A stretch of 61,277 bases of DNA from Patescibacteria group bacterium (GTDB lineage Bacteria > Patescibacteriota > Minisyncoccia > Phycocordibacterales > EsbW-18). Of this stretch, positions 33,366 to 55,333 are shown piece after piece; positions within the stretch are counted from its first letter, which is position 1; every line of letters begins with the position of its first letter. The stretch spans positions 4,980-66,256 of the forward strand of contig JBBTUJ010000001.1 of assembly GCA_038063815.1 (NCBI GenBank), in the 5' to 3' direction. The notes below the pieces were generated by a model. It searched no databases and was not told the DNA's origin. It was given only the letters and a program-made list of their open reading frames with translations. Both the position numbers and the translations under genes were made by a program.

Positions 33366-33420
33366 AAACCACAAAATCCAAATACTTGCAAAACTGAGGG
33401 AGGAAAGTATACTCCGTCTA

Positions 33421-33846: not shown

Positions 33847-33922
33847 ATCATCATGGCCACCCGCACACCGCGGGTGGTTGTGTTTTCTGCTACTATATAT
33901 ATGTAATGACCACGGTTTCTGT

Positions 33923-38080: not shown

Positions 38081-38240
38081 AAAGCGGGATTAGCCCTGCA
38101 CTCAACTTGTCATGGCGCTTTGCGCAAGAGGGGATGACAAGATTGAGTGCTCGGGTAAATGTAGTGGTAAGGGTGATGCTTCTTTCCGATTTACACACGA
38201 GCAAAGCGAGTGTATTGTAAATCGCAATCCCTACAATTTT

Positions 38241-38311
38241 GCGAGTGTAGTTCAGTGGTAGAATGAATGCTTCCCAAGCATTAGGCGCGGGTCCGATTCC
38301 CGCCACTCGCA
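38241..38311 (+). tRNA. tRNA-Gly(CCC)
   Basis: Acceptor GCGAGTG/CACTCGC, anticodon arm aatgc-ttcccaa-gcatt, T arm gcggg-tccgatt-cccgc. Confidence 0.9.
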
Positions 38312-38328
38312 TCTGTTCGCAAAATTGT

Positions 38329-38372
38329 GCGGGATCAAGCGAGAGATGCGAGTTCGATTCTCGCATCCCGCA
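38329..38372 (+). other. tRNA minihelix-like remnant (acceptor stem plus T arm only)
   Basis: GCGGGAT-N12-GCGAG-TTCGATT-CTCGC-ATCCCGC-A, with no D or anticodon arm. Confidence 0.6.
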
Positions 38373-38393
38373 CAGGTTAGTGCTAATTCAAGT

Positions 38394-38405
38394 GACCGAA
38401 CGGCC
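38394..38405. repeat. Candidate attL core
   Basis: GACCGAACGGCC, identical to 54796-54807; quasi-symmetric around a central AA. Confidence 0.55.
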
Positions 38406-38567
38406 CCGTGCTTTTAGGTCGTATTTTGAGTGTCCAGTTCGGTTCCTAAAAACTTCGCCCCAGCTGAAAATAGAACCTTAACTAGGCAATATCTCTACCA
38501 TTTCCTTCGTCCTTACCTCGTTGTTGTTACTTGAAGTTAGTTAAAGGTGGTAGAATTTCGCTAACAC

Positions 38568-40310
38568 ATGGACTACATACAGAAAATAACCGCTACACGC
38601 TGGAAGCATATCCAGCTTGATAAGCCGGTCGAACTCGAACCTGGAATTAACCTGATTCTGGGTAAAAATGGAAGTGGCAAGACCTCACTTATTGGGATGA
38701 TTGAGGCGGCAGCGGTGACTCAGGCTCAGCCGCTTCGCCAAGAGGTTCTTGATGCATTTGCTGAAGGCGCTCGACTTTCCAGTATCGAACTACGGTCAGG
38801 GGAGACTGATGTTGTTATAGGTAACGACAGACGGGGTAGCGAGGGACACTGGACTGCTAGCGATCTTAAGGATCGGCTCCGAACAATTGGATCTGCCCGT
38901 TCGGTTACTAGTGGCACTAGCACCAAAAATCCTTTTGCGAGTTCTATCACTATGGATACTTCCGGGCTTGCTGTTGGCCAAACTATTGATGTCGCTGAAG
39001 AGTTCAACAAATCGATTATAAAAGAACTCATTGAGGTCATTAAAGAAAAGATGGCCGCTGGTACAGACTTTCTTGAGGAGATTCAAAAAGACTACCAAAA
39101 CGGCCTAGTTGATTTCGATAAGGTGCTAAAAATAGACCCGTCTAAGGAGAACGCAGTATTTTTCGTTGACCATCTCGATAGAGAAGTTTCCATCACAGAG
39201 CTGAGTTCGGGCGAAAAGGAGTACCTCTATTTTTACTCATACCTCCGCCGGATTCGAGCAGACGAAAACAAGATTATTCTTATTGACGAGCCGGAACTTC
39301 ACCTCCATAGCAGCCAGATAAGGAAGCTGTGCGAACTTATTGCTGGTCTGGCAGTTAAAAACCAAGTCATTATCGCAACGCATTCCGGTGAGGTACTTCA
39401 GCATTTCATTTCTCGCGCAAACATAATCCTGCTCAGTAAAGGCGTAGTTGATAGGATTCAAGATGCGGAACAAATGAGAAAAGCTCTTGAGGAGACCGGC
39501 CTACCTATCGACCCATCCGTTTTCACAGCACACTGGATCTGTGCCGAGAACGACCCCACCGTGTCTCTTCACGGCGGAGGGCCGACTACTCCAGAGGTCC
39601 TAAGTTGGATTCTTGGAAACGATTTAAACAAGCGGTATTGGTCTTTTGGGTCTAATAAATCCACCTCGAAGATTTACGGCGAAGGTATAGCCAGTGCGTC
39701 TCCAGCGGCGCATAAAATTCGTGTCACACCTCTACTGGACGGGGACGTTCTTGCCAAAACTCCGGCAGACTATTTTCCTGCAACCATTCCTGCACCAGCG
39801 AATAACCTAGCCTACTTTCCTTTTTGGGAGATAGAGAGCGCCTTTCTCAGTACTGCGATACTCAATGCCATAATTCCAACCGAAGGAGGCGTTACGGGTG
39901 CGGATAGGTTCTGGGCAAGCGTTACTACCAATCAAGCAAGACTCCTTCTCTACATAAAGAAGACTGTCGCAAAGAACAGCCTTAGGCGATTTAGCTTGGA
40001 TAAATATATTGAAGCTGACCCACAAGTTGACATAGAGAAATGGAAAACTGAAATTCAGGCGAGTGTCACTGATCTTTCCCCGATTGATACGAAATTCGCA
40101 GAAGTTATAGCTGTTAAAAACTGGCGTTGGTTGCCCGGCAAAGAAGCCCTCGCACTGGCCATTATCTTGGAGCCAAACTTCTGGACAAAGCTTAGAAACC
40201 TGCAACAGAGCAAGGAGCTTAAAGCCCTTCTCGAATTGGACGCTGGTATGAAAACGTTTATTGAAAGCATGTCTGCGCTTTCAGGAGAGGTTCCCGAAGA
40301 GGCAGAGTAG
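38568..40310 (+). CDS. ABC-type ATPase fused to a putative TOPRIM-like nuclease (OLD/PARIS-like)
   Basis: Walker A GKNGSGKT, signature LSSGEK, Walker B ILIDEPE, H-loop ATHS. C-terminal acidic motifs CAEND and LLDGD suggest TOPRIM (inference). Confidence 0.7.
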   Translation: MDYIQKITATRWKHIQLDKPVELEPGINLILGKNGSGKTSLIGMIEAAAVTQAQPLRQEVLDAFAEGARLSSIELRSGETDVVIGNDRRGSEGHWTASDLKDRLRTIGSARSVTSGTSTKNPFASSITMDTSGLAVGQTIDVAEEFNKSIIKELIEVIKEKMAAGTDFLEEIQKDYQNGLVDFDKVLKIDPSKENAVFFVDHLDREVSITELSSGEKEYLYFYSYLRRIRADENKIILIDEPELHLHSSQIRKLCELIAGLAVKNQVIIATHSGEVLQHFISRANIILLSKGVVDRIQDAEQMRKALEETGLPIDPSVFTAHWICAENDPTVSLHGGGPTTPEVLSWILGNDLNKRYWSFGSNKSTSKIYGEGIASASPAAHKIRVTPLLDGDVLAKTPADYFPATIPAPANNLAYFPFWEIESAFLSTAILNAIIPTEGGVTGADRFWASVTTNQARLLLYIKKTVAKNSLRRFSLDKYIEADPQVDIEKWKTEIQASVTDLSPIDTKFAEVIAVKNWRWLPGKEALALAIILEPNFWTKLRNLQQSKELKALLELDAGMKTFIESMSALSGEVPEEAE

Positions 40311-40315
40311 GTTCT

Positions 40316-41641
40316 CTATTTCTCAAGCGCGATTTGCCGGTCCTTCAACACCAGCGTGCTCTTGAGACAGGACAGTAGCTCTCGCTTCTCCGTGATCGTA
40401 CCCTCCTTGAGAAGATACTTGGCGTATTCGCGCAGGTCGACATCGCTGCTGCGCTCCTTAGTTTTCATGCCGAGCACGCCGATACGGAATTTGTTGTATC
40501 GCGATATCTCATCACGGATCTTCTCTTTCATGCCGATCTCGTCGAGGTCGATGGTATCGAGGAGCTTGACCAGTTCTTCTATGAGATCCGTTTCGTTCAC
40601 GGGCGGGTTCTTGCAGTCGATGTCTTTCGACCGCGTGCACCTGTAGTAGACATGGCGGTTCACGCCGCCGTCTTTAAGTTTCTTGAACTTCTCGTCTGCC
40701 GTGATGCCGCTTCCGCATACACCGCAGGCGATCAATTTCGTGAAGGCGAATTCCTTGCTCTCGGTTTTGGGGATGTACTGATCTTGGATTGACTCCTGCA
40801 CCTTGTCGAAAAGTTCCTTGGTGATGAGTGGCTCATGTTTGCCCTGATACCAATTGCCGCTCCCGCGCGGGTACTCGAATTCACCGTAGTAGAAGGTGTT
40901 GCGAATGACGGTATACAGATTCCCAAGCGAGAGGTGTTTGCCAGTATGGGTCTTGAAGGCGTTTTTCGTGAGCCAGCGATGTGTTTGCCGTCCACTCCAT
41001 TTCTCATTGCCGATTTTCTCGAAGATCTTCCGAATAGTCGCGGCACGCTTCGGGTCGACAATAACCTCGCACTTGCGGTCTGTACGTTTTTCATTGAGGT
41101 AGCCAGTTGGTGCCGTTGATGGCCGCAGACCCATTTCGCAGCGGGCTCGTAGCCCGCGCTTCACATTGATGATTTTCTGGTCGTTCTCGAGCTTCGCCTG
41201 CGAGCCGAGAATCATGAGCATGAACTTCTCGTTTGGATTGTTGGTAAAGGCCTGCGTGAAGGTGCGTATCTCGACCAGCTTCTTTTGATCCAGGAGATCG
41301 ACAACCGCACCCAAATCTCCGGCGTTGCGACTGAGCCGATCCGGTGCCCACGTGAGGATACCGTTGAACTTCTCCTGCCGGATATCCTCGAGAAGCTGGT
41401 TATACACCGCCCGCTGGCCTACTTCCTTGGAGGAGTGCGACTCGCGCTTGACCTCGACGATCTCAAGATTCTCGCGCGTGGCGATGGCGGTCATCTCTCG
41501 CACTTGGGACTCGATGGAAAGCGCCTGTTTGTCCTCTTCCTCGGTGCTCTTTCTTGCATACAGGCAGTATCGGACCTTTACGGGCACGGGGACGGCCTGC
41601 CTGTTAATGCCGCCAACGGGAGCCCTTGTTGCTGTGTTCAT
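40316..41641 (-). CDS. Large serine recombinase (resolvase, recombinase and Zn-ribbon domains)
   Basis: 'YCLYARKSTEE' catalytic Ser, 'DRLSRN', 'PTGY', 'HEPLIT', 'CGVCG...YYRC...C'. Start placed at ATG 41641. Confidence 0.93.
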   Translation of the reverse strand: MNTATRAPVGGINRQAVPVPVKVRYCLYARKSTEEEDKQALSIESQVREMTAIATRENLEIVEVKRESHSSKEVGQRAVYNQLLEDIRQEKFNGILTWAPDRLSRNAGDLGAVVDLLDQKKLVEIRTFTQAFTNNPNEKFMLMILGSQAKLENDQKIINVKRGLRARCEMGLRPSTAPTGYLNEKRTDRKCEVIVDPKRAATIRKIFEKIGNEKWSGRQTHRWLTKNAFKTHTGKHLSLGNLYTVIRNTFYYGEFEYPRGSGNWYQGKHEPLITKELFDKVQESIQDQYIPKTESKEFAFTKLIACGVCGSGITADEKFKKLKDGGVNRHVYYRCTRSKDIDCKNPPVNETDLIEELVKLLDTIDLDEIGMKEKIRDEISRYNKFRIGVLGMKTKERSSDVDLREYAKYLLKEGTITEKRELLSCLKSTLVLKDRQIALEK

Positions 41642-41739
41642 ATACCACAAGGGATGACGCGAACAGTCCTAGGAGTCAAGAGCGTCCGAGGGGCTTGGAG
41701 TTGGTAACTTTACTGGCTCAAAGTTGCTAGAATAGTCCC

Positions 41740-41858
41740 CGCAACCGAATACCTGGCCTAACCTCGCCTTCGGGCGAGCATGGTCAAAAACCATCCAAGG
41801 AAGCTTCCTCGCACGAGGACTCGGCCGTTGGCCGGATCTGGATGCGAGGTTTTCTTTT
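41740..41858 (+). ncRNA. Candidate small RNA, motif copy 1
   Basis: Extended -10 TGCTAGAAT (41725-33). GCCTAA, hairpin ctcgcc-ttcg-ggcgag, CATGG-N7-CCATCCAAGG, then a cctcgca/tgcgagg stem and U-tract. Confidence 0.5.
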
Positions 41859-42906
41859 ACTCGGTGCGCCAGAACCAGTATCGGTTGTATACGTCCTGAC
41901 GCAGGCGGTATGCGTCGGCATGACTGAGTACGCCCATGTACGAATTGAGGCAGGACTCGAGCGTCAATTCGCTTATCTCCCCACGCTTGTAGGCACGAAC
42001 GGCTTGGTGCAGCTTTCGTGGAATCCGGCGTTTGGTCTTCGCACGAAGCTGCACGTGATTCGGCAACATGATGTAGCCGAGAAAGTCCACGCCACGCGTA
42101 TGCCTCCGCAATGTTATTTTCTTCGGATGTAACTCCAGCAGTAGTTTCTCTCGCAGAAAGTCTTGCATTGGCGTAAGCAAGTCCTCAAGGTAGCTCTTGT
42201 CGTTAGACACAATGATAAAGTCGTCCGTGTATCGAGCGTAATGTTTGACTTTCAACTCACGCTTCACGAACTGATCAAACTCATTCATGTAAATGTTCGC
42301 AAAGATCTGCGATGTCAGATTGCCGATTGGCACGCCTCGTCGCTCGAACAGATTCGGTCTGCTTGCGGAAAAGCTCTCGACGATCTCATGCATCAGTCTC
42401 ATGACCTTCTCGTCCTTGATCTTTGTGCTGAGAATCCCTAGGAGCGTGTCGTGGTCGATAGAGTCGAAGAACTTTCTGATGTCGCACTTGAGTGCGTAGC
42501 ACGGACGCGTGTTGTTGCGACTCACGGCGCGTATGACTTGTGCAACCCACCGCACGCCCTTGTGTGTTCCTTTGCCAAGACGGCAGGAAAACGACGTTGG
42601 GATGAAGGTCGGTTCAAAGATGGGGTTGAGCACGCTGAAGATAGCGTGGTGAAGCACGCGGTCGCGAACCGTCGCCTTATGAATGTGACGCACTTTAGGG
42701 TCGTGAATCCAGAAGCCCCTATACGCTCCGTGTTTGTACGTGCCATTCTTCAGATCTCGGTACAGGCCAAAGATGTGTTGCTCGATGTCTACCCCGAATT
42801 CCGCCACGTCAGGTTTGTTCCGCTTGTCGCGCTTGAATACCTCCCAAGCTCGAAACAACGTCTGCGGAGAGATTATTAACCAGCTTAGATTCTTATAAAC
42901 CTTCAT
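41857..42906 (-). CDS. DGR-type reverse transcriptase
   Basis: 'VRDRVLHHA', 'CDIRKFFDSI', 'GVPIGNLTSQIFAN', 'RYTDDF' and 'GVDFLGY'; 349 aa with no maturase or endonuclease domain; adjacent to avd, TR and VR. Confidence 0.93.
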   Translation of the reverse strand: MKVYKNLSWLIISPQTLFRAWEVFKRDKRNKPDVAEFGVDIEQHIFGLYRDLKNGTYKHGAYRGFWIHDPKVRHIHKATVRDRVLHHAIFSVLNPIFEPTFIPTSFSCRLGKGTHKGVRWVAQVIRAVSRNNTRPCYALKCDIRKFFDSIDHDTLLGILSTKIKDEKVMRLMHEIVESFSASRPNLFERRGVPIGNLTSQIFANIYMNEFDQFVKRELKVKHYARYTDDFIIVSNDKSYLEDLLTPMQDFLREKLLLELHPKKITLRRHTRGVDFLGYIMLPNHVQLRAKTKRRIPRKLHQAVRAYKRGEISELTLESCLNSYMGVLSHADAYRLRQDVYNRYWFWRTE

Positions 42907-42909
42907 AAC

Positions 42910-43260
42910 ATGAGTGATTTAGACATACCCATCTTCAAAAAATCCTACGATCTCTACAAAGAGTTCTACGGACTCCGCCTCTCGGTGCCGAAGCAAGACC
43001 GCTATACGCTCTGGCAAAAGTGCGAGAATCTGCTCATCGACATCCTTGAGGGCATTCTCCTTGCGAGCCAGCAGTCAAAGTCTGAGAAACTGCCGACCTT
43101 GGAGAAAGCGAGCGTGAAGCTCAACTTCATGCGGGTCTGCGTGCGCCTGTTGAAAGACGTGAAGGCAATCGACGACAAGAAGTACGTGCTCATTGAGGCG
43201 GACCTCGATGAGATCGGTCGGATGCTGGGTGGGTGGATCAAATCCACAAAAGAGCGTTAG
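42910..43260 (+). CDS. avd: DGR accessory variability determinant (Avd, four-helix bundle)
   Basis: 116 aa; 'IPIFKKSYDL', 'PKQDRYTL' and C-terminal 'EIGRMLGGWIK'. Confidence 0.9.
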   Translation: MSDLDIPIFKKSYDLYKEFYGLRLSVPKQDRYTLWQKCENLLIDILEGILLASQQSKSEKLPTLEKASVKLNFMRVCVRLLKDVKAIDDKKYVLIEADLDEIGRMLGGWIKSTKER

Positions 43261-43261
43261 T

Positions 43262-43290
43262 AGAAACTCCCGCGTGAAGCGGGAGTTTCT
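43262..43290. terminator. 12-bp hairpin between the avd 3' end and the TR 3' end
   Basis: agaaactcccgc-gtgaa-gcgggagtttct. Confidence 0.75.
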
Positions 43291-43313
43291 CACTGTGGAT
43301 GGAGGTATGACTG

Positions 43314-43428
43314 CCTGGCGGACGACACACCGATGTTGCTGTTGCGGTTGTTGTCGTTCCAGTTGTTGACGTTGAGACCCTTGGCGTCGAAGTTGCCGAC
43401 GTTCACGTGGTTGCCGTCCGAGTCGAGG
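43314..43428 (-). ncRNA. DGR template repeat (TR), 115 nt
   Basis: Aligns without gaps to 43816-43930; contains 11 in-frame AAC codons and 32 adenines. Confidence 0.95.
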
Positions 43429-43756
43429 TAGCTGCCCGTTCCCATCCGTGGCACCAGCACTCGAGGTTTGCCGCTCTTGCGAGCCTATATCCTCTCACGC
43501 CTGTATTTTATTCGAGAGCAGATTCCTTGCGGAACCATCTCCCCCTAGAAACGGGCAAGAAGTTCTCTCCATCCTTAATCGCACGCTGCCGTGATCCGTA
43601 AACCACTGGCACTCTGGCGATATCTCAAGGTGAGATATCTCGCGAGCGTGAACCGTAACCCACGCTACATTAGCAAGATTCAAAAAGTATAGTGTATCTG
43701 TATAAAAAACGAAAGCCCCCGGCACACTCTCCGACCGAAGTCGAAAAATATGCGCG

Positions 43757-43800
43757 GAGGCTCAAGACCTCAAGAGGGACAAGCCCTCAAGCGGTCAAGG
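43757..43800 (-). promoter_or_regulatory. Candidate DGR target-recognition hairpins 3' of VR
   Basis: gaggg-acaag-ccctc (43774-88) and gagg-ctcaaga-cctc, about 27 nt past the VR end. The stems are short, so the role is inference. Confidence 0.4.
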
Positions 43801-43809
43801 TTCAGAACT

Positions 43810-44607
43810 TCACTTCCTGGCGGACGACACACCGATGTAGCTGTGGCGGTAGTAGTCGTCCCAGCTGTAGACGTAGAGACCCTTGGCGCCGAAGCCGCCG
43901 ACGAGCACGCGGTCGCCGCCCGAGTCGAGGCTCGACGTACGCACGTAGACGTTCGCGAAGAGCCGGATGCCACGGACCTCGAAGTACATGGTGATGAACC
44001 ATGACATCTCGGCAGCGTTCGGCACGCTCTCGACACCCGACAGGAGCTTCTCCTGCTCGCTCCAAGTGCGGTTCGTCGAGTTCGGGACCGGCGTCTTGCG
44101 GATGGCGAGCCACCCGAACGACGTCTTGTCCTTGCTGGCGAACTCCTGGTCCGCGTACCAGCCGCCGGTCTTGCTGTAGAAGTGATTGGTCACGAGCTGG
44201 CGGACGTCCAGGAGCGACATCGCCGTTGGTGGCGCGGGCATGACGGCGTAACCGTTGTCCTTGCACCACCGCAGCATGTCGGCCGAGGGGATGCTGGCCG
44301 CGAGCGTCGCGATCTCGTCGTTGGTATAGGCGACACCACGACGAGTGGCCATGATCTCCTCCGGCGTGATGAAGTCCGCGCCGAGGATGGACTGAGCCAG
44401 GATGTAGTCAGGCAGCTTGGCCGAGAAGCGGCGGATGCCCTCGATGACCCAGTCCTGGAACTCACCACCACGCCCGATCAGGCGCTGGATGGCGTCCTTG
44501 TCGGGGTTCACCTCGACGAGAGCACGGTCACCCGTGTCCTCGACAAAACGCTTGAACTGCTTCTCTTGCGGCTGGGTGCGGTCCGACGTGATCGACTGAG
44601 TCGTCAT
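43810..44607 (-). CDS. DGR target protein (265 aa), C-terminal variable region, presumed CLec-like fold
   Basis: Start at ATG 44607 after SD aaggag. The last 38 sense codons before the final Lys form the VR. No signal peptide or TM helix. Confidence 0.9.
   Translation of the reverse strand: MTTQSITSDRTQPQEKQFKRFVEDTGDRALVEVNPDKDAIQRLIGRGGEFQDWVIEGIRRFSAKLPDYILAQSILGADFITPEEIMATRRGVAYTNDEIATLAASIPSADMLRWCKDNGYAVMPAPPTAMSLLDVRQLVTNHFYSKTGGWYADQEFASKDKTSFGWLAIRKTPVPNSTNRTWSEQEKLLSGVESVPNAAEMSWFITMYFEVRGIRLFANVYVRTSSLDSGGDRVLVGGFGAKGLYVYSWDDYYRHSYIGVSSARK
43816..43930 (-). repeat. DGR variable repeat (VR), 115 nt
   Basis: 16 mismatches versus TR, all at TR adenines; invariant 3' tail atcggtgtgtcgtccgccagg. 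Confidence 0.95.
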
Positions 44608-44751
44608 CGTCTGCTCCTTGTAGGTCACTACCATCCGCTTTGGGCGAACGATAACTGTCTCGGAATGAGACGAGTGTTTTAGGGACTTATGAAAATCCAC
44701 AAAACACTCGCCTCATTCAAGTTCTGAATTGAGAAGGAGCTTCTGGTGTAT

Positions 44752-44780
44752 ATAGTACCATAACGGTATACAGAAGTCAA
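44752..44780 (-). promoter_or_regulatory. Sigma70-type promoter for the DGR target gene
   Basis: Minus strand TTGACT-N17-TACTAT. Confidence 0.65.
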
Positions 44781-44878
44781 GAGTTGGTAACTAGGCTTCG
44801 CAGGGCCCTATTTCTAAGCTATAAGGGACATAGAAATTCGGCCTAAAAATGGTAGTATTTCTTTAACAACTGAATAGA

Positions 44879-45048
44879 GCCTAAACCCTCCGTTGGAGGG
44901 CATGGCGTTGAATCCATCCAAGGTAAACACCCCGTCGTCAGGGTTCCTTGGATGGTCGTAGGGGGAAACCTCTACGTTCTGGCCGAAAGGCTAGAGCTCC
45001 TGGCGGCGGGCTTTTTGCTACCCGCTGGGATAAATCCATCCAAGGAAC
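44879..45048 (+). promoter_or_regulatory. Structured 5' leader of the RM methyltransferase (motif copy 2)
   Basis: GCCTAA, hairpin ccctcc-gtt-ggaggg, CATGG-N8-CCATCCAAGG, two GAAA-capped hairpins, and gttccttggatgg complementary to ccatccaaggaac over the SD. Confidence 0.6.
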
Positions 45049-46761
45049 ATGTCTGATAATAAAGTCGAGCTCATCACTCGCATCGCAACACTCGAATCTG
45101 AAATACAGCGGCTTAAGCGTGCCAAGACGTATGGCCTCGTCTGGGAAGATAAGCCAGAGGACGTAGTCGTACAGTGCAAAGCGAATATTCCGGTCCTCAA
45201 AGAAGTGAAGACGCGGAAGATCGTCACGGACGAATCCCTTCCCACAAATCTCCTCATCGAAGGAGACAACTACCATTCGCTCTCGGTCTTGAACTACACC
45301 CACCGAGGCGGCTTTGACGTCATCTATGCCGATCCTCCATACAACACTGGCAATAAAAGCTGGCGGTACAATAACGATTACATAGAAAAAGATGACGGGT
45401 TCCGCCACAGCAAATGGATTTCATATATAGAGAAAAGATTGAGGCTCTCTAGATCATTACTCAAAGATGACGGAGTGATAGTCGTTACGATTGATGACTA
45501 TGAAATAGGCACATTGAGGCTACTCTTGGATGAAATCTTCGGCGAAGACAATCGACTTGGGCTTATTACGATAATGCATAATCCGCGAGGAAGAAGCGAT
45601 GACCAATATTTTGCGACTTCCCACGAATACGCTCTCTTTTATGGAAAAAATCCTGATAAGGCAATAACGTATAAGCTCGATCTTACACAGGAGCAGCGAG
45701 AATTATTTCCGCTGACCGATGAATTTTCAAACTACCGACTCCTTCCTCTTAAGAGAACGGGCTCCAACTCAACACCGAACGAGCGACCTAAATTGTACTA
45801 TCCAATTTTTGCAAATAAAAAATCTGGTGAGATCAGTATTAAAGAACGCGTGGGCAAGGATTGGTTGGTGATCGAACCTAAAGATTCAACCGGCGCAAAG
45901 CGTGTATGGCGCTGGGGCAAAGAAAAAGTTCAAAGAGAATGGAAAACCGAGCTGATTGCCAAATTCAAAAATGATAAATGCTCGATATTCACCAAGGACC
46001 GCATAAAGGAGGGACGGAAGCCGAAGACGATTTGGGTTGATCCAAAATATGATGCTTCTTCGCACGGAACAGTGTTGCTTGAAAATATCTTAGGCGAGAG
46101 GAAAGTTTTTGATTATCCGAAGTCCCTCTACGCAGTAATCGATACACTCAAAATTCTAACGAAAGAAAAAAGAGATGCTTCAGTTCTCGACTTCTTCGCT
46201 GGATCTGGCACCACCGGTCACGCAGTCTTTGAACTCAATAAGCAAGATGGCGGAAATCGTCGTTTCGTTCTTTGTACGAACAACGAAAACAATATCTGCG
46301 AAGAGGTAACGCATAAACGGCTTGAGCACGTCATTAAGGGCTATAAGGACAAGGGTGGTCAGCTGGTTAAAGGTTTGGGAGGCGATTTGAGATACTACAA
46401 AACCGACCTCGTCAGCACCGACAAACTCCAGAAGATATCTGATGAAGCTCGAATCAAGGTGACGTACCAAGCCGGTGAGATGATCGCGCTTCGCGAGGAC
46501 ACACTGACGGAAACCGAGAAAAACGACTGGTGGCAGATCTTCGAGGACCACGGGCGCATGACCGCCATCTATTTCAAAGAGGACAAGGCGAAGCTATCCG
46601 AGCTTGTGGCAAAACTTGAACAGAAGAATATTCCGGTCGCCCTATACATCTTCAGCTGGGGTAAGAACGAGTATCGGGGCGAGCTCGGAAGCGGCACGAT
46701 CCGCGTCGAAGATATTCCCGAGCCGATCCTTGAGGTCTATAAAGAAATCAATCGCCTGTAA
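45049..46761 (+). CDS. Type III restriction-modification methyltransferase (Mod)
   Basis: 'NLLIEGDNYHSL', 'ADPPYNTG', 'FDYPKS' and 'VLDFFAGSGTTGHAV' (beta-class N6-MTase order); followed by Res. Confidence 0.9.
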   Translation: MSDNKVELITRIATLESEIQRLKRAKTYGLVWEDKPEDVVVQCKANIPVLKEVKTRKIVTDESLPTNLLIEGDNYHSLSVLNYTHRGGFDVIYADPPYNTGNKSWRYNNDYIEKDDGFRHSKWISYIEKRLRLSRSLLKDDGVIVVTIDDYEIGTLRLLLDEIFGEDNRLGLITIMHNPRGRSDDQYFATSHEYALFYGKNPDKAITYKLDLTQEQRELFPLTDEFSNYRLLPLKRTGSNSTPNERPKLYYPIFANKKSGEISIKERVGKDWLVIEPKDSTGAKRVWRWGKEKVQREWKTELIAKFKNDKCSIFTKDRIKEGRKPKTIWVDPKYDASSHGTVLLENILGERKVFDYPKSLYAVIDTLKILTKEKRDASVLDFFAGSGTTGHAVFELNKQDGGNRRFVLCTNNENNICEEVTHKRLEHVIKGYKDKGGQLVKGLGGDLRYYKTDLVSTDKLQKISDEARIKVTYQAGEMIALREDTLTETEKNDWWQIFEDHGRMTAIYFKEDKAKLSELVAKLEQKNIPVALYIFSWGKNEYRGELGSGTIRVEDIPEPILEVYKEINRL

Positions 46762-46762
46762 T

Positions 46763-49090
46763 ATGTTCGCTCTCAAACCATTTCAGGAAGTAGCTGTCTC
46801 GAAACTCAAGAACGAGTTCCTCTCACTCTGGAAGTCACCGCACGAGAACATCCCGCTTGTTTTTAAGTCACCGACGGGATCGGGCAAAACGATCATGCTC
46901 GCGCAGTTCCTTCGAGATATCGTCGGCGACCCACGCTTCCAAGGTAATGATGTCGCGTTCCTGTGGTTCTCGTTCAGCGAAGACTCATACCTCCAGAGCA
47001 AGGGCAAGCTCTTTGATTACTACGGCGGCGCATCGGAACTCGACCTGTTGGATCTTAACGACCTCACCCGAGGGAAGCTTGAGCGAAACAATGTCTTTTT
47101 CATCAACTGGCAGAAGATTAAGGGAAAATCGAAAGAGAGCCGCAAGCTTCGGCGCGACAACGAGTGGGACCTGACCTTCGACAGCTTTATCAACAAGACC
47201 CACGAAGCGAAGCGGAAGCTGGTGGTCATCATCGATGAAGAGCACATCGGCTCCGATACCGATCTCGCGCTTGAACTGGTGAATGGGCTCATCAAACCAA
47301 AACTGATCGTCCGTGTTTCTGCGACCCCGAAGTACATCCCGAATGCGGAAGAGATCGCCGAGAAGAAAGGTGGTTTCGTTCAAGTAAAACGAGAAGAAGT
47401 AGTGGAAGCCGGATTGATCAAGGAAAAGATCGTATTCCAGACCGAGGAAGACCTGAACAGGAAAGAGCTAAAGGATATGGATCAGGACGAGATCCTTCTT
47501 GAGCTTGCATACCAAAAACGTCTTGAGCTTGTACAGCACTACAAGGCACTTAATATCGATATCAATCCGCTGGTCCTCATCCAGCTGCCGAACGACGATC
47601 AGGAAAGCACCGCGACCAGCACCAACAAGCGCGGTATTGTCACGCAGTTCCTCAAAGCAAAGGGTATTGGCGAGGAAGAGATAGCTGTCTGGCTCTCTCA
47701 GGAAAAAACGAACCTTGAAGACATCGAACAGAATGCTTCTCCTGTGTCATTCCTGCTCTTCAAGCAAGCCGCAGCGACCGGCTGGGACTGTCCGCGCGCG
47801 GGCGTGCTTGTGATGTTTCGAGAAATCCAGAATCCCACCTTCGCGATTCAAACCGTTGGTCGCATTCTGCGAATGCCGTTAGGTATACACTTCCCGCGAC
47901 CGGAGCTGAACATCGGCTACCTCTATACCAACTACAAGCGCAACGAGGTGCTTGCGGAATATGCGAAATCGAAGACCGACAACCGACCGGCGATCTACGG
48001 CAGCCACCGCAAAGTGGACATCGTACCACTCCAAGTCGAGTCTATATTCATGAGCCGAACCGACTACAACGATCTCGGTGACAGCTTCCAAGACGTATTC
48101 AGCGAAACTGTCGATGCGTATTTCGGGATCAAAAATGCAGACACGAGGCAGTCTGTCTTGAAAAAGCTCAAAGAAAAGGATTTGGAGATCTCACCGATGC
48201 TGACGAACGGTCTAATCGTAAACGTGGAGATCGACGACTATGACAACTTCACCCATGAGCTGCTTGCGGAAGGGAGCAGCCATGAACAGGAGATATCGCA
48301 GTATGATCTCGAACGACTCTACAATCTGCTGTGCTTCAAGCTCATCGTGCGGCAAACCGATGAAAACAAGAAGTTCGCTCCAGAGCGATCGTGGGGCAAG
48401 CTGAAAACAGCTCTCAATGTCTGGCTCATGAAGCGCCTCGACCTGACGCGACAGGAGGTATATACGATTCTCGTCTATGACCTCCTCAATCCCACCAGCG
48501 TCCTCGCTCCGCTCATCGGAGAATCGCTCGGTTTGTACCGCCCTCTGCGGGAACGAGAGGTGGATAAAAAGTCGTCCCGCTCGAAGCGTACGGAGGTCAT
48601 CGAGATGCCTCGTGAATCATTCTTCTTCACTGATCAATACGAGGAAATGCGCGTGAAGAAGTGTGCGATGACCCCGTTCTATATCGAGAAAAGCTATGTA
48701 GGAGAAGATAACGAGAAGGAGTTCATCGCCTTTCTCGAACACCACAAAAACGTCCTGTGGTGGTACAAGAACGGCGATCTCGGGAGCGAACACTTCTCCC
48801 TCTCGTACTACAACCCCGAGGAGAACAAAGAAAGACTATTCTATCCCGATTGGATCGTGAAGACGAAGTCCGGCGTATGGATCATTGATACCAAGAAAGG
48901 AAGTACGGCTGAACTTATGGACACCAAGTACAAAGCTGAAGCACTGCAACAATGGGCTAAAGTCCAAAAGGGATTCCTGGCTGGCATCGCCGTACAAGAC
49001 GGTCCCAACGGATGGAAGATCAACACAGAAAAGACGTACACGTATACGCCCTCGTTGACCGGATGGAGAAATCTGCAGGAGCTGTTGTGA
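46763..49090 (+). CDS. Type III restriction endonuclease (Res; SF2 helicase plus PD-(D/E)xK nuclease)
   Basis: Walker A SPTGSGKT, 'IIDEEH', 'TGWDCPRA', 'QTVGRILR', C-terminal 'YPDWIV...IIDTK'. Start placed at ATG 46763. Confidence 0.9.
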   Translation: MFALKPFQEVAVSKLKNEFLSLWKSPHENIPLVFKSPTGSGKTIMLAQFLRDIVGDPRFQGNDVAFLWFSFSEDSYLQSKGKLFDYYGGASELDLLDLNDLTRGKLERNNVFFINWQKIKGKSKESRKLRRDNEWDLTFDSFINKTHEAKRKLVVIIDEEHIGSDTDLALELVNGLIKPKLIVRVSATPKYIPNAEEIAEKKGGFVQVKREEVVEAGLIKEKIVFQTEEDLNRKELKDMDQDEILLELAYQKRLELVQHYKALNIDINPLVLIQLPNDDQESTATSTNKRGIVTQFLKAKGIGEEEIAVWLSQEKTNLEDIEQNASPVSFLLFKQAAATGWDCPRAGVLVMFREIQNPTFAIQTVGRILRMPLGIHFPRPELNIGYLYTNYKRNEVLAEYAKSKTDNRPAIYGSHRKVDIVPLQVESIFMSRTDYNDLGDSFQDVFSETVDAYFGIKNADTRQSVLKKLKEKDLEISPMLTNGLIVNVEIDDYDNFTHELLAEGSSHEQEISQYDLERLYNLLCFKLIVRQTDENKKFAPERSWGKLKTALNVWLMKRLDLTRQEVYTILVYDLLNPTSVLAPLIGESLGLYRPLREREVDKKSSRSKRTEVIEMPRESFFFTDQYEEMRVKKCAMTPFYIEKSYVGEDNEKEFIAFLEHHKNVLWWYKNGDLGSEHFSLSYYNPEENKERLFYPDWIVKTKSGVWIIDTKKGSTAELMDTKYKAEALQQWAKVQKGFLAGIAVQDGPNGWKINTEKTYTYTPSLTGWRNLQELL

Positions 49091-49169
49091 TGTAAAAGAG
49101 TACTTACCGGAACATGTTAATCCACTTTATTACTTTACTTCATCTCGCTCACAAAACAGATCCTCGTCT

Positions 49170-50984
49170 CTAGAACTTCCCAAAAATATCTCGCAGTTTC
49201 TCTACATGCTTCTCGACCGCCGTCTCATCCGGCTTGATTGACTCGACGTCAATAATCCAATCCTCTTTAAGATATAGTTTATCCTTGCGCCTAAAGGGCC
49301 CCTTGTTTATTCGTTCCAAGTCACCCTCTTGGGTGTTAGTGGCTACTCGGACCGCATCATTGTCGCTTTCGATAAACTCCTTCACAGCTTTTATTCTTTC
49401 GGAGACGTGTTCACTCATGTCGGCTTCGTAGATGTCGTCCAACTTCTTAAACACCGCTTCGAACGCGAGCAGCTGGGCGTACCCGTCCATCAAGGTAATC
49501 CGTCGCGTTCTGAACAATGCCTCGTATAACAGGTCCTTGAATTCAAGGTAGGTCTTGCCGCCCTCTCTGGTTTCCTTAAAGTAGCTTGTACCCTCGAAGA
49601 TATTGGAGAGCAGTGTCATCGACATACCATAACGGCTGAAGAACGTCGGTTCGCCCTTGGCATTATGGCCACAGATAAGAAGCTCTTGATCCAAGTGGTC
49701 GCCCTTGTGCTCCGGATCATCGTCGGCATAGACGATGCCGAGGTTTGGATCGTATGTGTCCGCACGCTTCTTGAAGTCTGTTACGAATTTATACCTTCCC
49801 TTGAACGCATACAGACTCTCGCCGGTAATCACTGACTCGCTGAAGGTCTCAAAGGCAATCCTTTCGTCTACTTCTCCCTTATAAGCGGTTTCAAGGCCGA
49901 TATTTTCCAGCACATGCTTCGACAACGCAAGCTCCCCGTCGAGCGCATCCTTGCTGTAGAGTTTTTCTTTTCTCGTTTCGGCATCTGTTCGTCCTCGAAC
50001 CGTGAGGTCGCCCGCATCGATATGCTTTTTCAAGACCCCCCTTGCTTTTTCTTTGGTGGAGATCCAGCGCTCGAATAGCTTCGCGTCGGTGCTCACCACC
50101 AACGGCGTATACTCATCGAGGAGACCACTCTCCAGAGCTGCAAGGCAGGCATCCTTAAGCATTGTTCGGATTGTCGTATGGTGCTCTGCCGCATACGCTT
50201 CCATGACCTTCTTTATCTCATCAGATTCATAGAGACCGTCGTCATCTTTGCTGACGGGTATCTCGATGCCCTTGCTCTTGAGAAAATATTTGGCGACCTC
50301 AAGAAGAGGAATGCAGGCGAAGTAGTGGTACAACTGATACTCCTTGGCGAAGTTGTTATAGCTTTTCTCGGCCACCAGTTCGGCGAGCCGTTCCTGGGCT
50401 TCGTGCGTCAATTCGTTCTTGCCGTTGAAGAGACCCGCGATCACTTCTTCCTGATCCAGATACTGGTGATCATATTCCACCTCCTCATAGAGTTCTTTCA
50501 TTCTTTTCTTCTCCTCAAGGCTTAAAAGCTCGAACGCCAGTTGGTAGACCGCGTAGTCAAAGTCGACGCCTTCCTTGAGCTTTACCTCTCGCTGTTTTTT
50601 GGCGATCTCGGCTGCCTCTGCAACCGTCACTTTCTTGATCTGCTTTAAGGTTGTGATGGCTCCTTCCATACGCTGAGTGACTGGGTACCCCACCAGTTCC
50701 ATGATAAACGGCAGCTGGGCCAAGTGTGCAACCTGAGCGTCCTTGTACAAGAGTTCTATTTCAAGATCCATGCGGCCGGAGTGTTTCCATCCTTCGTTCA
50801 GGGTGTTCCACTCTCGGGCTTCAGCATTGTCCTTCGCGTGCCAGTTTTCCAGAGCGTCCTTATCGGCGGGGGTGAGGATGTCTTTGCCGGTCTTCGCGCG
50901 GTGCATCTCGTTTTTGATGAGCATCAAAAACTTTTCCCGGGCGGTGAGGTTACCTCTCGAAAGTGCGTTGGTGAGCTGTTTCAT
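49170..50984 (-). CDS. Hypothetical protein (604 aa), element-encoded
   Basis: Long helical, charged ORF at the end of the minus-strand operon; no family recognised. Confidence 0.75.
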   Translation of the reverse strand: MKQLTNALSRGNLTAREKFLMLIKNEMHRAKTGKDILTPADKDALENWHAKDNAEAREWNTLNEGWKHSGRMDLEIELLYKDAQVAHLAQLPFIMELVGYPVTQRMEGAITTLKQIKKVTVAEAAEIAKKQREVKLKEGVDFDYAVYQLAFELLSLEEKKRMKELYEEVEYDHQYLDQEEVIAGLFNGKNELTHEAQERLAELVAEKSYNNFAKEYQLYHYFACIPLLEVAKYFLKSKGIEIPVSKDDDGLYESDEIKKVMEAYAAEHHTTIRTMLKDACLAALESGLLDEYTPLVVSTDAKLFERWISTKEKARGVLKKHIDAGDLTVRGRTDAETRKEKLYSKDALDGELALSKHVLENIGLETAYKGEVDERIAFETFSESVITGESLYAFKGRYKFVTDFKKRADTYDPNLGIVYADDDPEHKGDHLDQELLICGHNAKGEPTFFSRYGMSMTLLSNIFEGTSYFKETREGGKTYLEFKDLLYEALFRTRRITLMDGYAQLLAFEAVFKKLDDIYEADMSEHVSERIKAVKEFIESDNDAVRVATNTQEGDLERINKGPFRRKDKLYLKEDWIIDVESIKPDETAVEKHVEKLRDIFGKF

Positions 50985-50985
50985 A

Positions 50986-51201
50986 TTATTTTCTTTTCTT
51001 TAAGGTCTGTTCAAGAAATTCAACCCTGTCTTTAAGCTCGGTGATCTCTAGGACCTTCGCCAGAGCGAGTGCCAGGCGGGAGACGACCAAAGCGCGCCGC
51101 GTGCCGGTCTTTCGCTGGTGCACGTCCTGCAACGTATCGGAAAGAATGGCCGCCGCTTCCTCGATACTCAGATATTTTTTAGGTTGTTCGTGTAGTTCCA
51201 T
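50986..51201 (-). CDS. Small hypothetical protein with C-terminal coiled coil
   Basis: 71 aa, tightly packed in the operon; ends 'EITELKDRVEFLEQTL'. Confidence 0.6.
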   Translation of the reverse strand: MELHEQPKKYLSIEEAAAILSDTLQDVHQRKTGTRRALVVSRLALALAKVLEITELKDRVEFLEQTLKKRK

Positions 51202-51206
51202 ACTTG

Positions 51207-51599: not shown

Positions 51600-51604
51600 A
51601 TCGT

Positions 51605-53615: not shown

Positions 53616-53703
53616 AGGTGTACCTTTTGCTGTGCTAGATTGCGACATATAGTATCATTATTGGGTAAAAAAATTTGTCATTGAAAACTGATCGATCCGC
53701 TCC

Positions 53704-54225: not shown

Positions 54226-54234
54226 GTGATGCGT

Positions 54235-54788: not shown

Positions 54789-54795
54789 GCAACGC

Positions 54796-55326: not shown

Positions 55327-55333
55327 TATTTGT

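Follow-up and report, generated by a model that had tools for sequence, protein, structure and literature searches.

The LOOT RNA motif originates from a comparative-genomics survey (Weinberg et al. 2017, PMC5737381), and the Rfam 14 paper displays it as a metagenome-based family (PMC7779021). Rfam types this family as 'Gene; sRNA', not as a cis-regulatory element, and its function is unassigned there. A second point of comparison is offered by temperate phages, namely the c4-icd-ant operon of P1/P7 and its repression by c4 (PMC8198154). The two RNA motifs described here lie in a stretch of 61,277 nucleotides (the window) of a CPR genome of the Parcubacteria/Paceibacterota type, and our analysis shows that both contain the 5' domain of LOOT-family RNAs (Rfam RF03000). 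Both belong to an integrated, prophage-like element, the cargo of which includes a serine integrase, a diversity-generating retroelement (DGR), and type III restriction-modification genes, together with the regulator pair ImmA/ImmR.

A first-pass annotation had reported two copies of a motif with a 6-bp stem maintained by compensatory changes, and had regarded it as new-looking. Both copies were located, and 2 of the 6 pairs in this stem (P1a) are true double changes between copies 1 and 2 (U-A to C-G and G-C to U-A). Shuffled sequence would yield 0.03 occurrences of the framework GCCTAA-N-stem-CATGG, and the window has two. The Rfam model matches copy 2 at 77.2 bits (gathering score 46.4) over model positions 1-121 of 121, and copy 2 is a canonical full-length LOOT. 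A match to a described family is the result that the annotation had itself named as counting against novelty, and that claim therefore falls: the motif is already catalogued. Copy 1 scores 25.2 bits with the same model, which is below threshold. A purpose-built 5'-domain model (R1), from whose training copy 1 was left out, matches it at 36.1 bits (E 8.9e-8), and copies 1 and 2 are the only R1 matches in the whole window. Copy 1 is a truncated LOOT paralogue, which we call a mini-LOOT. The second stem proposed earlier, between ATGG and CCAT, is not a conserved feature, as no more than 11 of 102 family members could form it. In the family, GCC pairs with GGC to give P1, while CCAUCCAAGG supplies the 5' side of P2, a long helix.

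Copy 2 runs in order through the -10 box, a 5' element, P1/P1a, an A-rich linker, P2, the two GNRA hairpins P3 and P4, a 3' tail, and a U-run. As first proposed, it heads the leader of mod, the ATG of which lies 54 nt downstream. The features of copy 2 and its operon are as follows.

44850..44858, +, extended -10 box TGGTAGTAT, a predicted promoter from the sequence and the family pattern
44866..44877, +, conserved 5' element ACAACUGAAUAG, at the predicted transcript start
44878..44995, +, full-length LOOT as in the Rfam model (RF03000, 77.2 bits); the next five helices follow this match
44879-81/44904-06, +, P1
44886-91/44895-44900, +, P1a (CCCTCC/GGAGGG)
44914-23/44946-55, +, P2
44957-76, +, P3 with a GAAA loop
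44978-95, +, P4 with a GAAA loop
44879-84, 44901-05, and 44914-23, sequence blocks GCCTAA, CATGG, and CCATCCAAGG
44931..44942, +, segment X of the P2 apical loop, CCCGUCGUCAGG, pairing with the 3' tail (12 bp of complementarity to 44999-45010)
44999..45016, +, segment X'', the 3' tail CCUGGCGGCGGG (44999-45010), then C and the U-run (45012-16)
45022..45029, +, segment X''', CCGCUGGG, a downstream tail complement with which the tail could pair instead in read-through RNA
45036..45048, +, the P2 5' strand CCAUCCAAGG repeated exactly (45036-45) across the Shine-Dalgarno sequence of mod (AAGGA), 3 nt from the ATG (45049)
45049..46761, +, mod, a type III-like N6/N4 DNA methyltransferase led by copy 2 (Pfam N6_N4_Mtase, 3.5e-29)
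to 49090, +, res, of the ResIII helicase type, after mod (Pfam ResIII, 9.9e-12)

Copy 1 lacks hairpins P3 and P4, and its linker runs via CCAUCCAAGG straight into a nested terminator. It lies divergent from the large serine recombinase gene, with a 105-nt gap between the two.

40316..41650, -, large serine recombinase (Pfam Resolvase, Recombinase, and Zn_ribbon_recom)
41725..41733, +, extended -10 box TGCTAGAAT, a predicted promoter read from the sequence
41741..41752, +, conserved 5' element GCAACCGAAUAC, at the predicted transcript start
41755-41858, +, copy 1, the truncated paralogue, whole
41755..41785, +, 5' domain, with P1 (41755-58/41782-85) around P1a and the conserved CCUAA and GCAUGG
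41763-68/41773-78, +, P1a (CTCGCC/GGCGAG) in the R1 model, with the same stems in the minimum-energy fold
41756-61, 41779-83, and 41791-41800, sequence blocks GCCTAA, CATGG, and CCATCCAAGG
41786..41800, +, A-rich linker and CCAUCCAAGG (41791-41800), matching the 5' strand of P2 in copy 2
41807..41858, +, predicted terminator (fold z -3.05; helix kept in relatives), with helix CCUCGCA 41807-13/UGCGAGG 41843-49, a small inner hairpin (41822-34), and a U-run (41850-58)

The two copies also resemble each other farther upstream, as far as a shared CAAC(C/U)GAAUA element where the transcripts are predicted to start. This element takes the form ACAACUGAAUA in copy 2, in locus L123, and in four further truncated copies, and the form ACAAYUDAAU in many LOOT loci. 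The extended -10 boxes noted earlier are indeed present, with spacings to the GCC of 22 nt for copy 1 and 20 nt for copy 2, and among the 33 relatives that strictly match the pattern of the 5' element, 12 have a TGnTAnnnT box 4-7 nt before it. A simple sigma-70 scan calls neither box of copies 1 and 2, because the -35 is absent.

The view that this is a conserved structured RNA module is borne out by ≈103 LOOT relatives with covarying helices, nearly all in CPR/Patescibacteria assemblies, although their conservation of GCCTAA and GCATGG is partly guaranteed by the search pattern that collected them. The gene upstream is divergent in 65 of 94 loci, and homologs of the large serine recombinase, mostly upstream and divergent, occur in 37-42 of 102. 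The gene clusters of these loci include a serine recombinase, terminase, and ParB-methylase, among others, and phage genes often adjoin. The genes behind LOOT are very diverse: 7 of 90 encode DNA methylases, and the others encode unrelated proteins, mostly uncharacterized or without a family, among them proteases, zinc-ribbon and membrane proteins, and DUFs.

A feature absent from the Rfam model is a long-range helix between the 3' tail and the P2 loop, which forms a pseudoknot with P2 and is a predicted terminator. Its version in the window spans 12 bp, with an energy of -22.8 kcal/mol. Across the family alignment it shows compensatory changes at 9 of 9 pairs and is 95.9% paired, versus 36-43% when the partner is slid, with 0 of 500 shuffles as high. 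The U-run that follows it is at least 90% conserved among 103 sequences. Beyond the U-run, roughly half of LOOT loci hold a complement of the tail; in the window this segment (X''') pairs with 44999-45006 as a hairpin when the full leader is folded to minimum energy.

A second set of alternative pairings involves the P2 strands. The sequence CCATCCAAGG has four exact occurrences: at 41791, at 44914, as the reverse complement at 44946-55, and at 45036-45 over the ribosome-binding site of mod. The minimum-energy structure predicted for 44866-45060 joins the last of these to the P2 3' strand in a pairing of 13 bp, and the full mod leader folds with its Shine-Dalgarno sequence masked (-88.4 kcal/mol, z -5.5). 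An exact P2 5'-strand copy of at least 8 nt precedes the start codon in 25 of 102 loci, window included, with all 11 nt present in 14; these copies always lie 72-99 nt after P2 and stop 0-7 nt short of the ATG. The corresponding rate in cross-locus controls is 0.7%, and each of the six LOOT-led methyltransferase loci carries such a copy. The P2 3' strand could therefore mask the ribosome site, and the two alternative states differ by 2.7 kcal/mol on average. As 75% of loci are without a ribosome-site copy, translational masking cannot be the universal function of LOOT.

Copy 1 looks like a stand-alone, terminated small RNA of ≈115-120 nt, much as the first-pass annotation had suggested (≈115 nt), on the basis of its strong predicted hairpin and U-run and of the lack of any ORF behind it. 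Its terminator extends over the stop codon of a reverse transcriptase gene that runs toward it, and CCAUCCAAGG is mostly unpaired in the predicted fold, apart from 41797-41800, which pair at the base of the terminator hairpin. Mini-LOOTs also lie directly 3' of related DGR reverse transcriptase stop codons in L123, L258, L264, and L270, where the block of linker plus CCAUCCAA and the terminator helix are kept; L271 and L286 have the same truncated form with other P2-like strands. Overall, the block CAAA(A/G)CCAUCCAA(G) is kept in 5 of 5 DGR-linked truncated copies.

On balance, we lean with moderate confidence toward a leader/attenuator switch on mod-res, combining a terminator with ribosome-site masking, that has a small-RNA twin in copy 1. 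LOOT would be a promoter-proximal leader that gates the downstream cargo gene at two levels. At the first, the tail/P2-loop helix and U-run would end most transcripts as an RNA of ≈150 nt, and competition of this helix with a small apical P2 hairpin would provide the attenuator logic. At the second, in read-through RNA, the P2 3' strand would exchange its internal partner for the copy at the mod ribosome site, and the tail would then pair with its second, downstream complement. With the Shine-Dalgarno sequence and AUG flank masked, Mod, and with it Res, would not be made. Because P2 forms first during transcription, the masked state would need strand displacement or a factor. A protein or RNA that sets the balance would probably be sensed by the invariant 5' domain together with the linker. 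More speculatively, copy 1 as a free small RNA could compete in trans for the masking strand, since its CCAUCCAAGG is mostly unpaired and identical to both the P2 5' strand and the mod-site copy. The module may also, as the first-pass annotation proposed, coordinate genes of the element. The only perfect complement of this segment of copy 1 in the 61-kb window is the P2 3' strand of copy 2. One and the same P2 sequence is present in all loci that hold both a truncated and a full copy, so these loci offer no covariation in favor of a trans interaction, for which the evidence is complementarity. The internal pairing predicted for the CCAUCC strand in the truncated copy of L123 counts against it.

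A doubtful but substantial alternative is that both copies are purely trans-acting small RNAs with their own promoter and terminator, directed at mRNAs of the element, the host, or rival phages, and that the gene behind each is incidental or has its own promoter. The Rfam type agrees with this view, as do the near-invariant U-run after a covarying helix, the frequent absence of the cis ribosome-site copy, and the classical layout of copy 1, with no ORF following its structured 5' domain, largely single-stranded stretch, and terminator. However, the candidate antisense segments of the full form, namely the tail and the 3' strand of P2, are engaged in intramolecular pairing, and about 90 of 103 loci have an ORF on the same strand that begins within ≈100 nt of LOOT, leaving little room for a second promoter. 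Elsewhere in the 8-kb loci, sequences matching the P2 strand are also no more frequent than background, with enrichment at the cis site alone.

An improbable reading places the function in DNA, with the copies as portable promoter-plus-boundary modules or recombination substrates that swap cargo cassettes beside the integrase, much as promoter-stem-loop repeats flank mobile cassettes in T4-like phages. The conserved LOOT module stands before very diverse cargo and frequently near a serine recombinase. A module is flanked by more than one copy in the window, in L123, which has three, and in L203, where the 5' domain is in tandem, and identical P2 sequences recur in unrelated loci. Yet six helices keep their pairing through G-U pairs and compensatory changes, and the GNRA tetraloops and U-run are conserved, which places the constraint on RNA, not on DNA sites. 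A DNA-level role could be a by-product compatible with an RNA function.

It is very improbable that the copies are accessory RNAs of the DGR they flank, for example in cDNA priming or handling of the TR RNA. Copies do bracket the DGR in the window, L123, and L258, truncated copies directly follow a reverse transcriptase stop codon in seven cases, and the LOOT 5' domain is found in 14 of 80 related-reverse-transcriptase loci, always antisense to that gene. Conversely, 66 of those 80 loci are without the domain, and only 2 of 102 LOOT loci contain a reverse transcriptase. Both copies are opposite in strand to the TR and the reverse transcriptase gene, and relatives lack the CCAUCCA that lies 3' of the TR in the window. 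A ligand riboswitch controlling the methyltransferase, with SAM or SAH as suggested at first, is very unlikely despite the SAM-dependent methylase behind copy 2 and a compact, highly conserved junction (CCUAAAC/GCAUGG) beside alternative pairings like those of an expression platform, because the downstream genes are mostly unrelated proteins without a metabolic theme, the family is tied to mobile-element genes, no gene is controlled by copy 1, and the Rfam scan matched no riboswitch family even at E up to 10.

In comparison with the Rfam LOOT family, copy 2 is the same (P1/P1a, P2, P3 with GAAA, and P4 with a GNRA loop), and copy 1 agrees with it in the 5' domain, the linker, and the beginning of P2. 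Beyond that model we describe the 5' element, the tail/P2-loop helix and U-run, the further copies of P2 and the tail complement that lie downstream, and the CPR prophage context; some of these, the terminator especially, may already be part of the original LOOT description. Riboswitch platforms and attenuators resemble LOOT in their mutually exclusive helices, here the P2 apical hairpin versus the tail helix with its U-run, and P2 versus the pairing of its 3' strand with the ribosome site, the competing states being nearly equal in energy. Unlike them, LOOT has no known metabolic gene association or ligand, its terminator stem is long-range and pseudoknotted and not a local hairpin, and its masking strand lies within the conserved core and not in a separate platform. 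As in the antisense-RNA and C-protein control of mobile restriction-modification systems, LOOT would be a regulatory device ahead of an operon; unlike these, it sits on the sense strand in the leader, has no C-protein box, and precedes many genes unrelated to restriction-modification.

The P1/P7 c4 and P4 CI RNAs are, like LOOT, small structured RNAs transcribed first in a temperate-phage operon. The sites of P1 c4 are arranged as a1/b1 and a2/b2, and those of P4 CI as seqA/B/C. In both cases, as in LOOT, antisense segments match an upstream site and the ribosome-binding site of the next gene, and the specificity segments vary between related elements. The c4 and CI RNAs are immunity RNAs in the leader of the operon that they repress, and the likeness of LOOT to them is one of layout, with no sequence or model similarity and no match to the Rfam C4 family. 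LOOT ends at its own predicted terminator, whereas c4 and CI are ended by processing. Because the upstream site and antisense strand of LOOT form a stable internal helix, a cis switch is likelier here than a free antisense RNA.

The first-pass annotation had singled out two copies of an RNA motif in the window, and both lie exactly where it placed them, each preceded by the extended -10 box claimed for it. Their GCCTAA-stem-CATGG framework occurs twice in 61 kb, against 0.03 occurrences expected from shuffled sequence. The P1a stems of the two copies differ by genuine double changes at two of six pairs, which bears out the compensatory changes that had been claimed, and copy 2 does head the leader of the type III modification gene mod.

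Features of the two motif copies in the window
41725-33: extended -10 box of copy 1, TGCTAGAAT
41741-52: conserved 5′ element of copy 1
41756-61: GCCUAA of copy 1, followed by C
41763-68 / 41773-78: P1a stem of copy 1, CUCGCC/GGCGAG
41779-83: CAUGG of copy 1, followed by a 7-nt A-rich stretch
41791-41800: CCAUCCAAGG of copy 1
44850-58: extended -10 box of copy 2, TGGTAGTAT
44866-77: conserved 5′ element of copy 2
44879-84: GCCUAA of copy 2, followed by A
44886-91 / 44895-44900: P1a stem of copy 2, CCCUCC/GGAGGG
44901-05: CAUGG of copy 2, followed by 8 nt
44914-23 / 44946-55: helix P2 of copy 2, with CCAUCCAAGG at 44914-23
44957-76: helix P3 of copy 2, GAAA loop
44978-95: helix P4 of copy 2, GAAA loop
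44931-42 with 44999-45010: tail helix of copy 2, 12 bp, -22.8 kcal/mol
45012-16: U-run of copy 2

The annotation overlooked that CCATCCAAGG has four exact occurrences, all inside 3.3 kb: at 41791, at 44914, at 44946-55 as the reverse complement, and at 45036-45, 3 bases 5′ of the mod start codon.

The motif had been taken for a new-looking one, a reading that the Rfam covariance-model scan overturns. Copy 2 (44878-44995) matches the LOOT family (RF03000) along the whole model (positions 1-121 of 121) and, at 77.2 bits, exceeds the gathering score of 46.4. In LOOT RNAs a GCC-GGC helix (P1) encloses an internal loop together with hairpin P1a, and CCAUCCAAGG in copy 2 is the 5′ strand of the long helix P2. 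Copy 1 (41755-41876), with 25.2 bits and an E of 0.07 when 3.8 kb are searched, stays below the gathering score, and its alignment to the family is convincing for the 5′ part only, the rest failing to match: P3 and P4 are absent, and the P2 remnant of 6 bp (CAUCCA/UGGAUG) lies outside the minimum-energy fold. What both copies have is the 5′ domain, in which P1 closes a CCUAA(A)C ... GCAUGG internal loop around P1a and an A-rich linker follows. A covariance model of the 5′ domain alone (R1), built from 102 relatives including copy 2 and excluding copy 1, finds copy 1 at 36.1 bits (E 9e-8) and copy 2 at 42.9 bits, with no further match in the window. The second stem that had been drawn, ATGG/CCAT, did not survive the comparison; it can form in only 11 of the 102 listed relatives and is therefore no family feature, the family pairing GCC with GGC instead. 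The motif is a fresh instance of a known orphan family together with a truncated variant that falls below the Rfam threshold. The observation is confirmed and its interpretation partly supported.

LOOT was described in the survey of Weinberg et al. 2017 (PMC5737381); the Rfam 14 paper (PMC7779021) displays it as a metagenome-based family, and it is also listed in structure-prediction and Rfam 15 papers. The literature searched yielded no functional study of this orphan, metagenome-catalogued family, no function or host assignment for it, and no papers on Patescibacteria prophages with serine recombinases. The window and its relatives place LOOT in prophage-like elements of CPR/Patescibacteria, beside serine integrases.

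Copies 1 and 2 bracket a minus-strand diversity-generating retroelement (DGR) within an island that apparently extends from a tRNA-Gly to a tRNA-Arg gene.

Features of the island in the window
38240-55949: apparent extent of the island
Beyond the recombinase: AAA_21/OLD-like ATPase gene; tRNA-Gly
40316-41650: large serine recombinase, upstream of and divergent from copy 1
41857-42906 (-): reverse transcriptase
42910-43260 (+): bAvd gene, inverted relative to the rest of the DGR, which is unusual
43310-43428 (-): template repeat (TR) of the DGR
43810-44700 (-): DGR target ORF, with the variable repeat (VR) at its 3′ end, 43812-43930
45049-46761: mod, led by copy 2, followed by a ResIII-type res gene
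Further along: two more N6/N4 DNA methylases (one with a ParB-N fusion), an ImmA/IrrE M78 peptidase and an HTH repressor

Sixteen of the 17 TR/VR mismatches fall on template adenines, and the 296-aa target ORF has no Pfam match. A perfect hairpin occupies 43263-43290, between avd and TR. A near-perfect long inverted repeat surrounds the start of the target gene (44657-44722) and draws spurious weak matches to microRNA families; it may be an operator, a 5′ UTR hairpin or a bidirectional terminator. The island also holds a 604-aa ORF without a family. Virion genes are missing from the island, which could therefore be a defence island or what is left of a prophage. LepA is encoded in the chromosomal flank, and every named relative of it belongs to the CPR (Campbellbacteria, Kaiserbacteria, Paceibacterota and Parcubacteria); together with the gene content, this points to an integrated prophage-like element in a CPR bacterium. 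Housekeeping RNAs in the window comprise a class A RNase P RNA (119.6 bits) and nine tRNA genes, four of them clustered at 18.8-19.2 kb (coordinates 33420-33851, 18810-19217, 26281-27209 and 55877-56510).

Relatives were collected with a pattern made from conserved blocks, which returned 3 viral contigs and at least 120 stretches in a species-representative genome set. About 103 of the matches listed adopt the LOOT shape with its four hairpins when folded. That GCCTAA, GCATGG, GTC and GAAA do not vary among them is in part built in, since the pattern contains those blocks. By lineage label, the 68 true matches with a readable label among those listed divide into 49 CPR/Patescibacteria, 10 "bacterium", 8 Gammaproteobacteria (third-party bins) and 1 Pacearchaeota, and all 12 false matches among those listed stem from ordinary phyla. 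The LOOTs on the eight "uncultured Gammaproteobacteria" contigs and the one "Pacearchaeota" contig (loci L128, L148, L164, L177, L184, L186, L189, L202 and L169) resemble the CPR ones; either these bins are mislabelled or contaminated, or the element extends past CPR. A looser pattern, CCTAANC..GCATGG..AAAA, gave just one canonical LOOT (L002) and a few similar 5′ modules among the matches listed, which included at least 120 viral stretches. Modules like the LOOT 5′ domain (CCUAA, hairpin, GCAUGG, A-run) but followed by very dissimilar 3′ parts are seen on the viral contigs L057 (382-425, minus strand), L064 (3017-3059, minus strand), L097 and L111, and that of L057 adjoins a tRNA T-arm-like sequence. 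The 5′ domain may be a portable module, the scores of these viral contigs being biased by a selection pattern that shares those blocks.

A same-strand ORF begins within about 100 nt of LOOT in about 90 of 103 listed loci, and 65 of 94 have a divergently transcribed gene as their nearest upstream neighbor. The genes behind LOOT are extremely diverse: most encode proteins without any family, 7 of 90 among the listed loci are DNA methylases, and others specify trypsin-like proteases, DUF4352, DUF805 or zinc-ribbon proteins, an Ltp-like lipoprotein or pieces of restriction-modification systems. A large serine recombinase is the nearest upstream gene in 11 of 96 listed cases, and homologs of the window recombinase lie within 8 kb of LOOT in 37-42 of 102 listed loci. 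Twelve of these, among the listed loci, are close relatives (E 1e-145 or better, about 445 aa), seven of which sit 100-232 nt upstream and divergent, an arrangement exactly like that at copy 1. Recurrent neighbors in the listed loci are a ParB-methylase fusion (15), an 84-aa protein (13), a large-terminase-like protein (11) and a small HTH protein (11); the recombinase and the ParB-methylase were named from Pfam scans and the others by sequence reading. A reverse transcriptase is present in only 2 of 102 listed LOOT loci. This family-wide context identifies LOOT as a CPR mobile-element module at the head of variable cargo, neither part of the DGR nor bound to methylases.

The relatives also reveal an anatomy larger than the Rfam model. 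A 5′ element, ACAAYUDAAU, precedes P1 by 12-21 nt in 33 of 99 listed relatives under a strict pattern, and many others show looser forms of it. Extended -10 boxes, where visible, end 4-7 nt ahead of this element, which places the element at the predicted transcript start. A further shared DNA element, GTTGGTAACTnGnCTTCGCA, is found upstream of LOOT promoters, at 41700-41711 and 44781-44800 in the window, where AGTCAAGAG precedes it, and about 60-100 nt upstream of LOOT in L151, L159, L164 and L177. Its five matches are clustered, about six being expected across all 787 kb, and it could be an operator or a recombinase site.

At the other end, P4 is followed by a conserved tail (consensus CUGGCGGGGAGC) and a nearly invariant U-run. 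The partner of the tail is the 5′ half of the P2 apical loop, a helix that RNAalifold chose unprompted. Compensatory changes occur at all nine of its pairs, with 95.9% of cells paired in the listed relatives; with a slid partner 36-43% are paired, and none of 500 shuffles reaches the observed covariation. The tail helix forms a pseudoknot with P2 and excludes the small P2 apical hairpin drawn by Rfam, so that, as modeled, the two competing structures have the layout of a terminator with a competing hairpin. In copy 2 this helix is long-range and pseudoknotted, and the conserved U-run behind it suggests that it would act as a terminator. Its counterpart in copy 1 is a nested helix (41807-13/41843-49) with a U-run, and these 7 G+C-rich base pairs followed by UUUUCUUUU make a clear candidate for an intrinsic terminator. 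A simple promoter and terminator scan calls neither the promoters nor the terminators, because there is no -35 box and the loops exceed 8 nt. A second complement to the tail lies 5-12 nt past the U-run in about half of the listed loci (45022-29 in the window).

A third addition links LOOT to the gene behind it. In 25 of 102 listed loci, at least 8 nt of the P2 5′ strand recur without mismatch 72-99 nt past the P2 3′ strand, and in 14 of these loci the copy spans the full 11 nt. The same A-rich run stands in front of the copy, whose end lies 0-7 nt ahead of an ATG. Cross-locus controls reach an 8-nt match in 0.7% of cases. Because P2 is hypervariable, with 82 distinct 9-mers among the 102 listed loci, the match of each locus to its own copy is strong covariation in itself. 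All six DNA-methyltransferase loci that are led by LOOT, namely the window, L122, L140, L161, L165 and L168, have such a ribosome-site copy. Certain P2 sequences recur across otherwise different loci: CCTACGCGA is found in L134, L161, L165 and L226, and CCGCTACAG is common to L167, L210 and a truncated copy in L286. These recurring sequences look like discrete specificity groups. Some loci carry multiple units. L123 holds a truncated copy and two convergent full LOOTs (401-520, 3618-3738 (+), 4295-4412 (-)), and L203 has a full LOOT with a tandem second 5′ domain (4301-4349 and 4408-4555, minus strand), with the P2-like strand of that domain directly adjoining the ATG of the following gene. 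Such arrangements hint that ribosome-site copies arose by duplication of the 5′ half.

Folding suggests that the leader can adopt two states. The nested minimum-energy fold of the window leader (44866-45060; -88.4 kcal/mol, z -5.5) pairs GUUCCUUGGAUGG with CCAUCCAAGGAAC, and the Shine-Dalgarno sequence is therefore masked in this predicted structure. The AUG would sit in a 3-nt bulge followed by six more pairs, with the tail forming a hairpin with 45022-29. Across the 21 of 25 loci that were computable, the states with P2 closed and with the ribosome site masked differ by a mean of 2.7 kcal/mol, and 7 of the 25 loci attain their lowest energy in the masked state. For the terminated RNA (44866-45017), the predicted energies are -67.3 kcal/mol with P2 and -67.5 kcal/mol with the tail helix when one is allowed each time, and the two could coexist as a pseudoknot.

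Copy 1 represents a recurrent truncated form. Its predicted fold consists of P1/P1a, a mostly unpaired CAAAAACCAUCCAAGG, a Y-shaped terminator hairpin (CCUCGCA/UGCGAGG) and UUUUCUUUU; the reverse transcriptase gene converges on copy 1, and its stop codon and the U-run overlap. The earlier proposal of a terminated small RNA agrees well with this predicted terminator, which would yield an RNA of about 115-120 nt. We examined 80 metagenomic loci encoding related reverse transcriptases and found LOOT 5′ domains in 14, in every case antisense to that gene. In L123, L258, L264, L270, L271 and L286 the domain lies directly 3′ of the reverse transcriptase stop codon and lacks P3/P4. The truncated copies of the window, L123, L258, L264 and L270 share the 5′ element, a covarying P1a, a CAAA(A/G)CCAUCCAA(G) block and the terminator helix. 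Both L123 and L258 carry, like the window, a full LOOT with CCAUCCAAGG as its P2 on the far side of the DGR, so the order of truncated copy, DGR and full LOOT is ancestral to the lineage. The P2 sequence is identical within every pair of truncated and full copies; in the truncated copy of L123, folding predicts internal pairing of CCAUCC.

An action purely in trans, in keeping with the sRNA label that Rfam gives to LOOT, is possible for the family and likely for copy 1, with its own candidate terminator; matches to the P2 strand elsewhere in the loci, at about 0.12 per locus, are at background. A portable DNA-level boundary for cassette exchange may coexist with an RNA function, although it leaves the RNA-type covariation unexplained. 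A riboswitch for SAM or SAH, ligands that the first-pass annotation had suggested probing, is unlikely: no riboswitch family matches 41500-45300 at E up to 10, and the downstream genes are heterogeneous, without a single metabolic pathway. The idea that LOOT is an accessory RNA of the DGR it flanks in the window is contradicted by co-occurrence and strand, given the near-absence of reverse transcriptases from the 102 listed LOOT loci and the consistently opposite orientation of the domain in the 14 of 80 reverse-transcriptase loci that have one. The CCAUCCA found 3′ of the window TR, a candidate RNA link to the DGR, is missing there in 44 related loci examined and is a coincidence. A leader peptide starting at the invariant AUG of GCAUGG is excluded, as the ORFs range from 2 to more than 80 codons and show no conservation.

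Alongside the family membership, architecture, covariation and context documented here, we infer that LOOT is a promoter-proximal leader that gates its cargo gene in two ways. The first gate would be termination at the tail helix and U-run, giving an RNA of about 150 nt. The second would operate in the read-through RNA, which would swap partners near-isoenergetically and so mask the ribosome-binding site. The invariant 5′ domain and its A-rich linker offer an obvious putative binding place for a factor. For the window, copy 2 would be expected to keep mod-res silent or tightly limited, and copy 1 to be released as a free sRNA whose CCAUCCAAGG could, more speculatively, compete for the masking strand in an anti-antisense effect. 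In its fullest form, the proposal would make LOOT and its truncated version a specificity switch built of RNA alone and used by CPR phages and integrative elements. It would combine a hypervariable P2, a 3′ strand alternating between an internal decoy and the cargo ribosome site, a pseudoknot-built terminator and a truncated sRNA acting in trans as an anti-antisense; we regard this complete scheme as rather improbable. If it is true, defence cargo, for instance restriction-modification genes, would be under a control of the immunity or addiction type, in a lineage with almost no regulatory RNA biology known.

These data add to the anatomy of LOOT a predicted promoter, a 5′ element and a putative terminator helix that forms a pseudoknot, and they offer a testable mechanism in which the cargo ribosome-binding site is an exact, covarying copy of one strand of LOOT's own helix. 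Such a mechanism, if true, would rank among the first examples of RNA-based regulation reported from CPR mobile elements and would be a new way to gate restriction-modification and other defence or "moron" genes.

The c4 RNA is encoded in the leader of the c4-icd-ant operon, which it represses (PMC8198154). No C4 match is present in the window at the gathering threshold or in the region at E up to 10, and LOOT is not a member of that family. The closest working analogy for LOOT is nevertheless provided by such leader-encoded immunity RNAs, c4 of P1/P7 and CI of P4. Their antisense segments match two sites, one upstream and the other on the next gene's ribosome-binding site. The layout of LOOT is similar: the strand at 44946-55 is complementary to both 44914-23 and 45036-45, and the same holds in 25 of the 102 listed loci.
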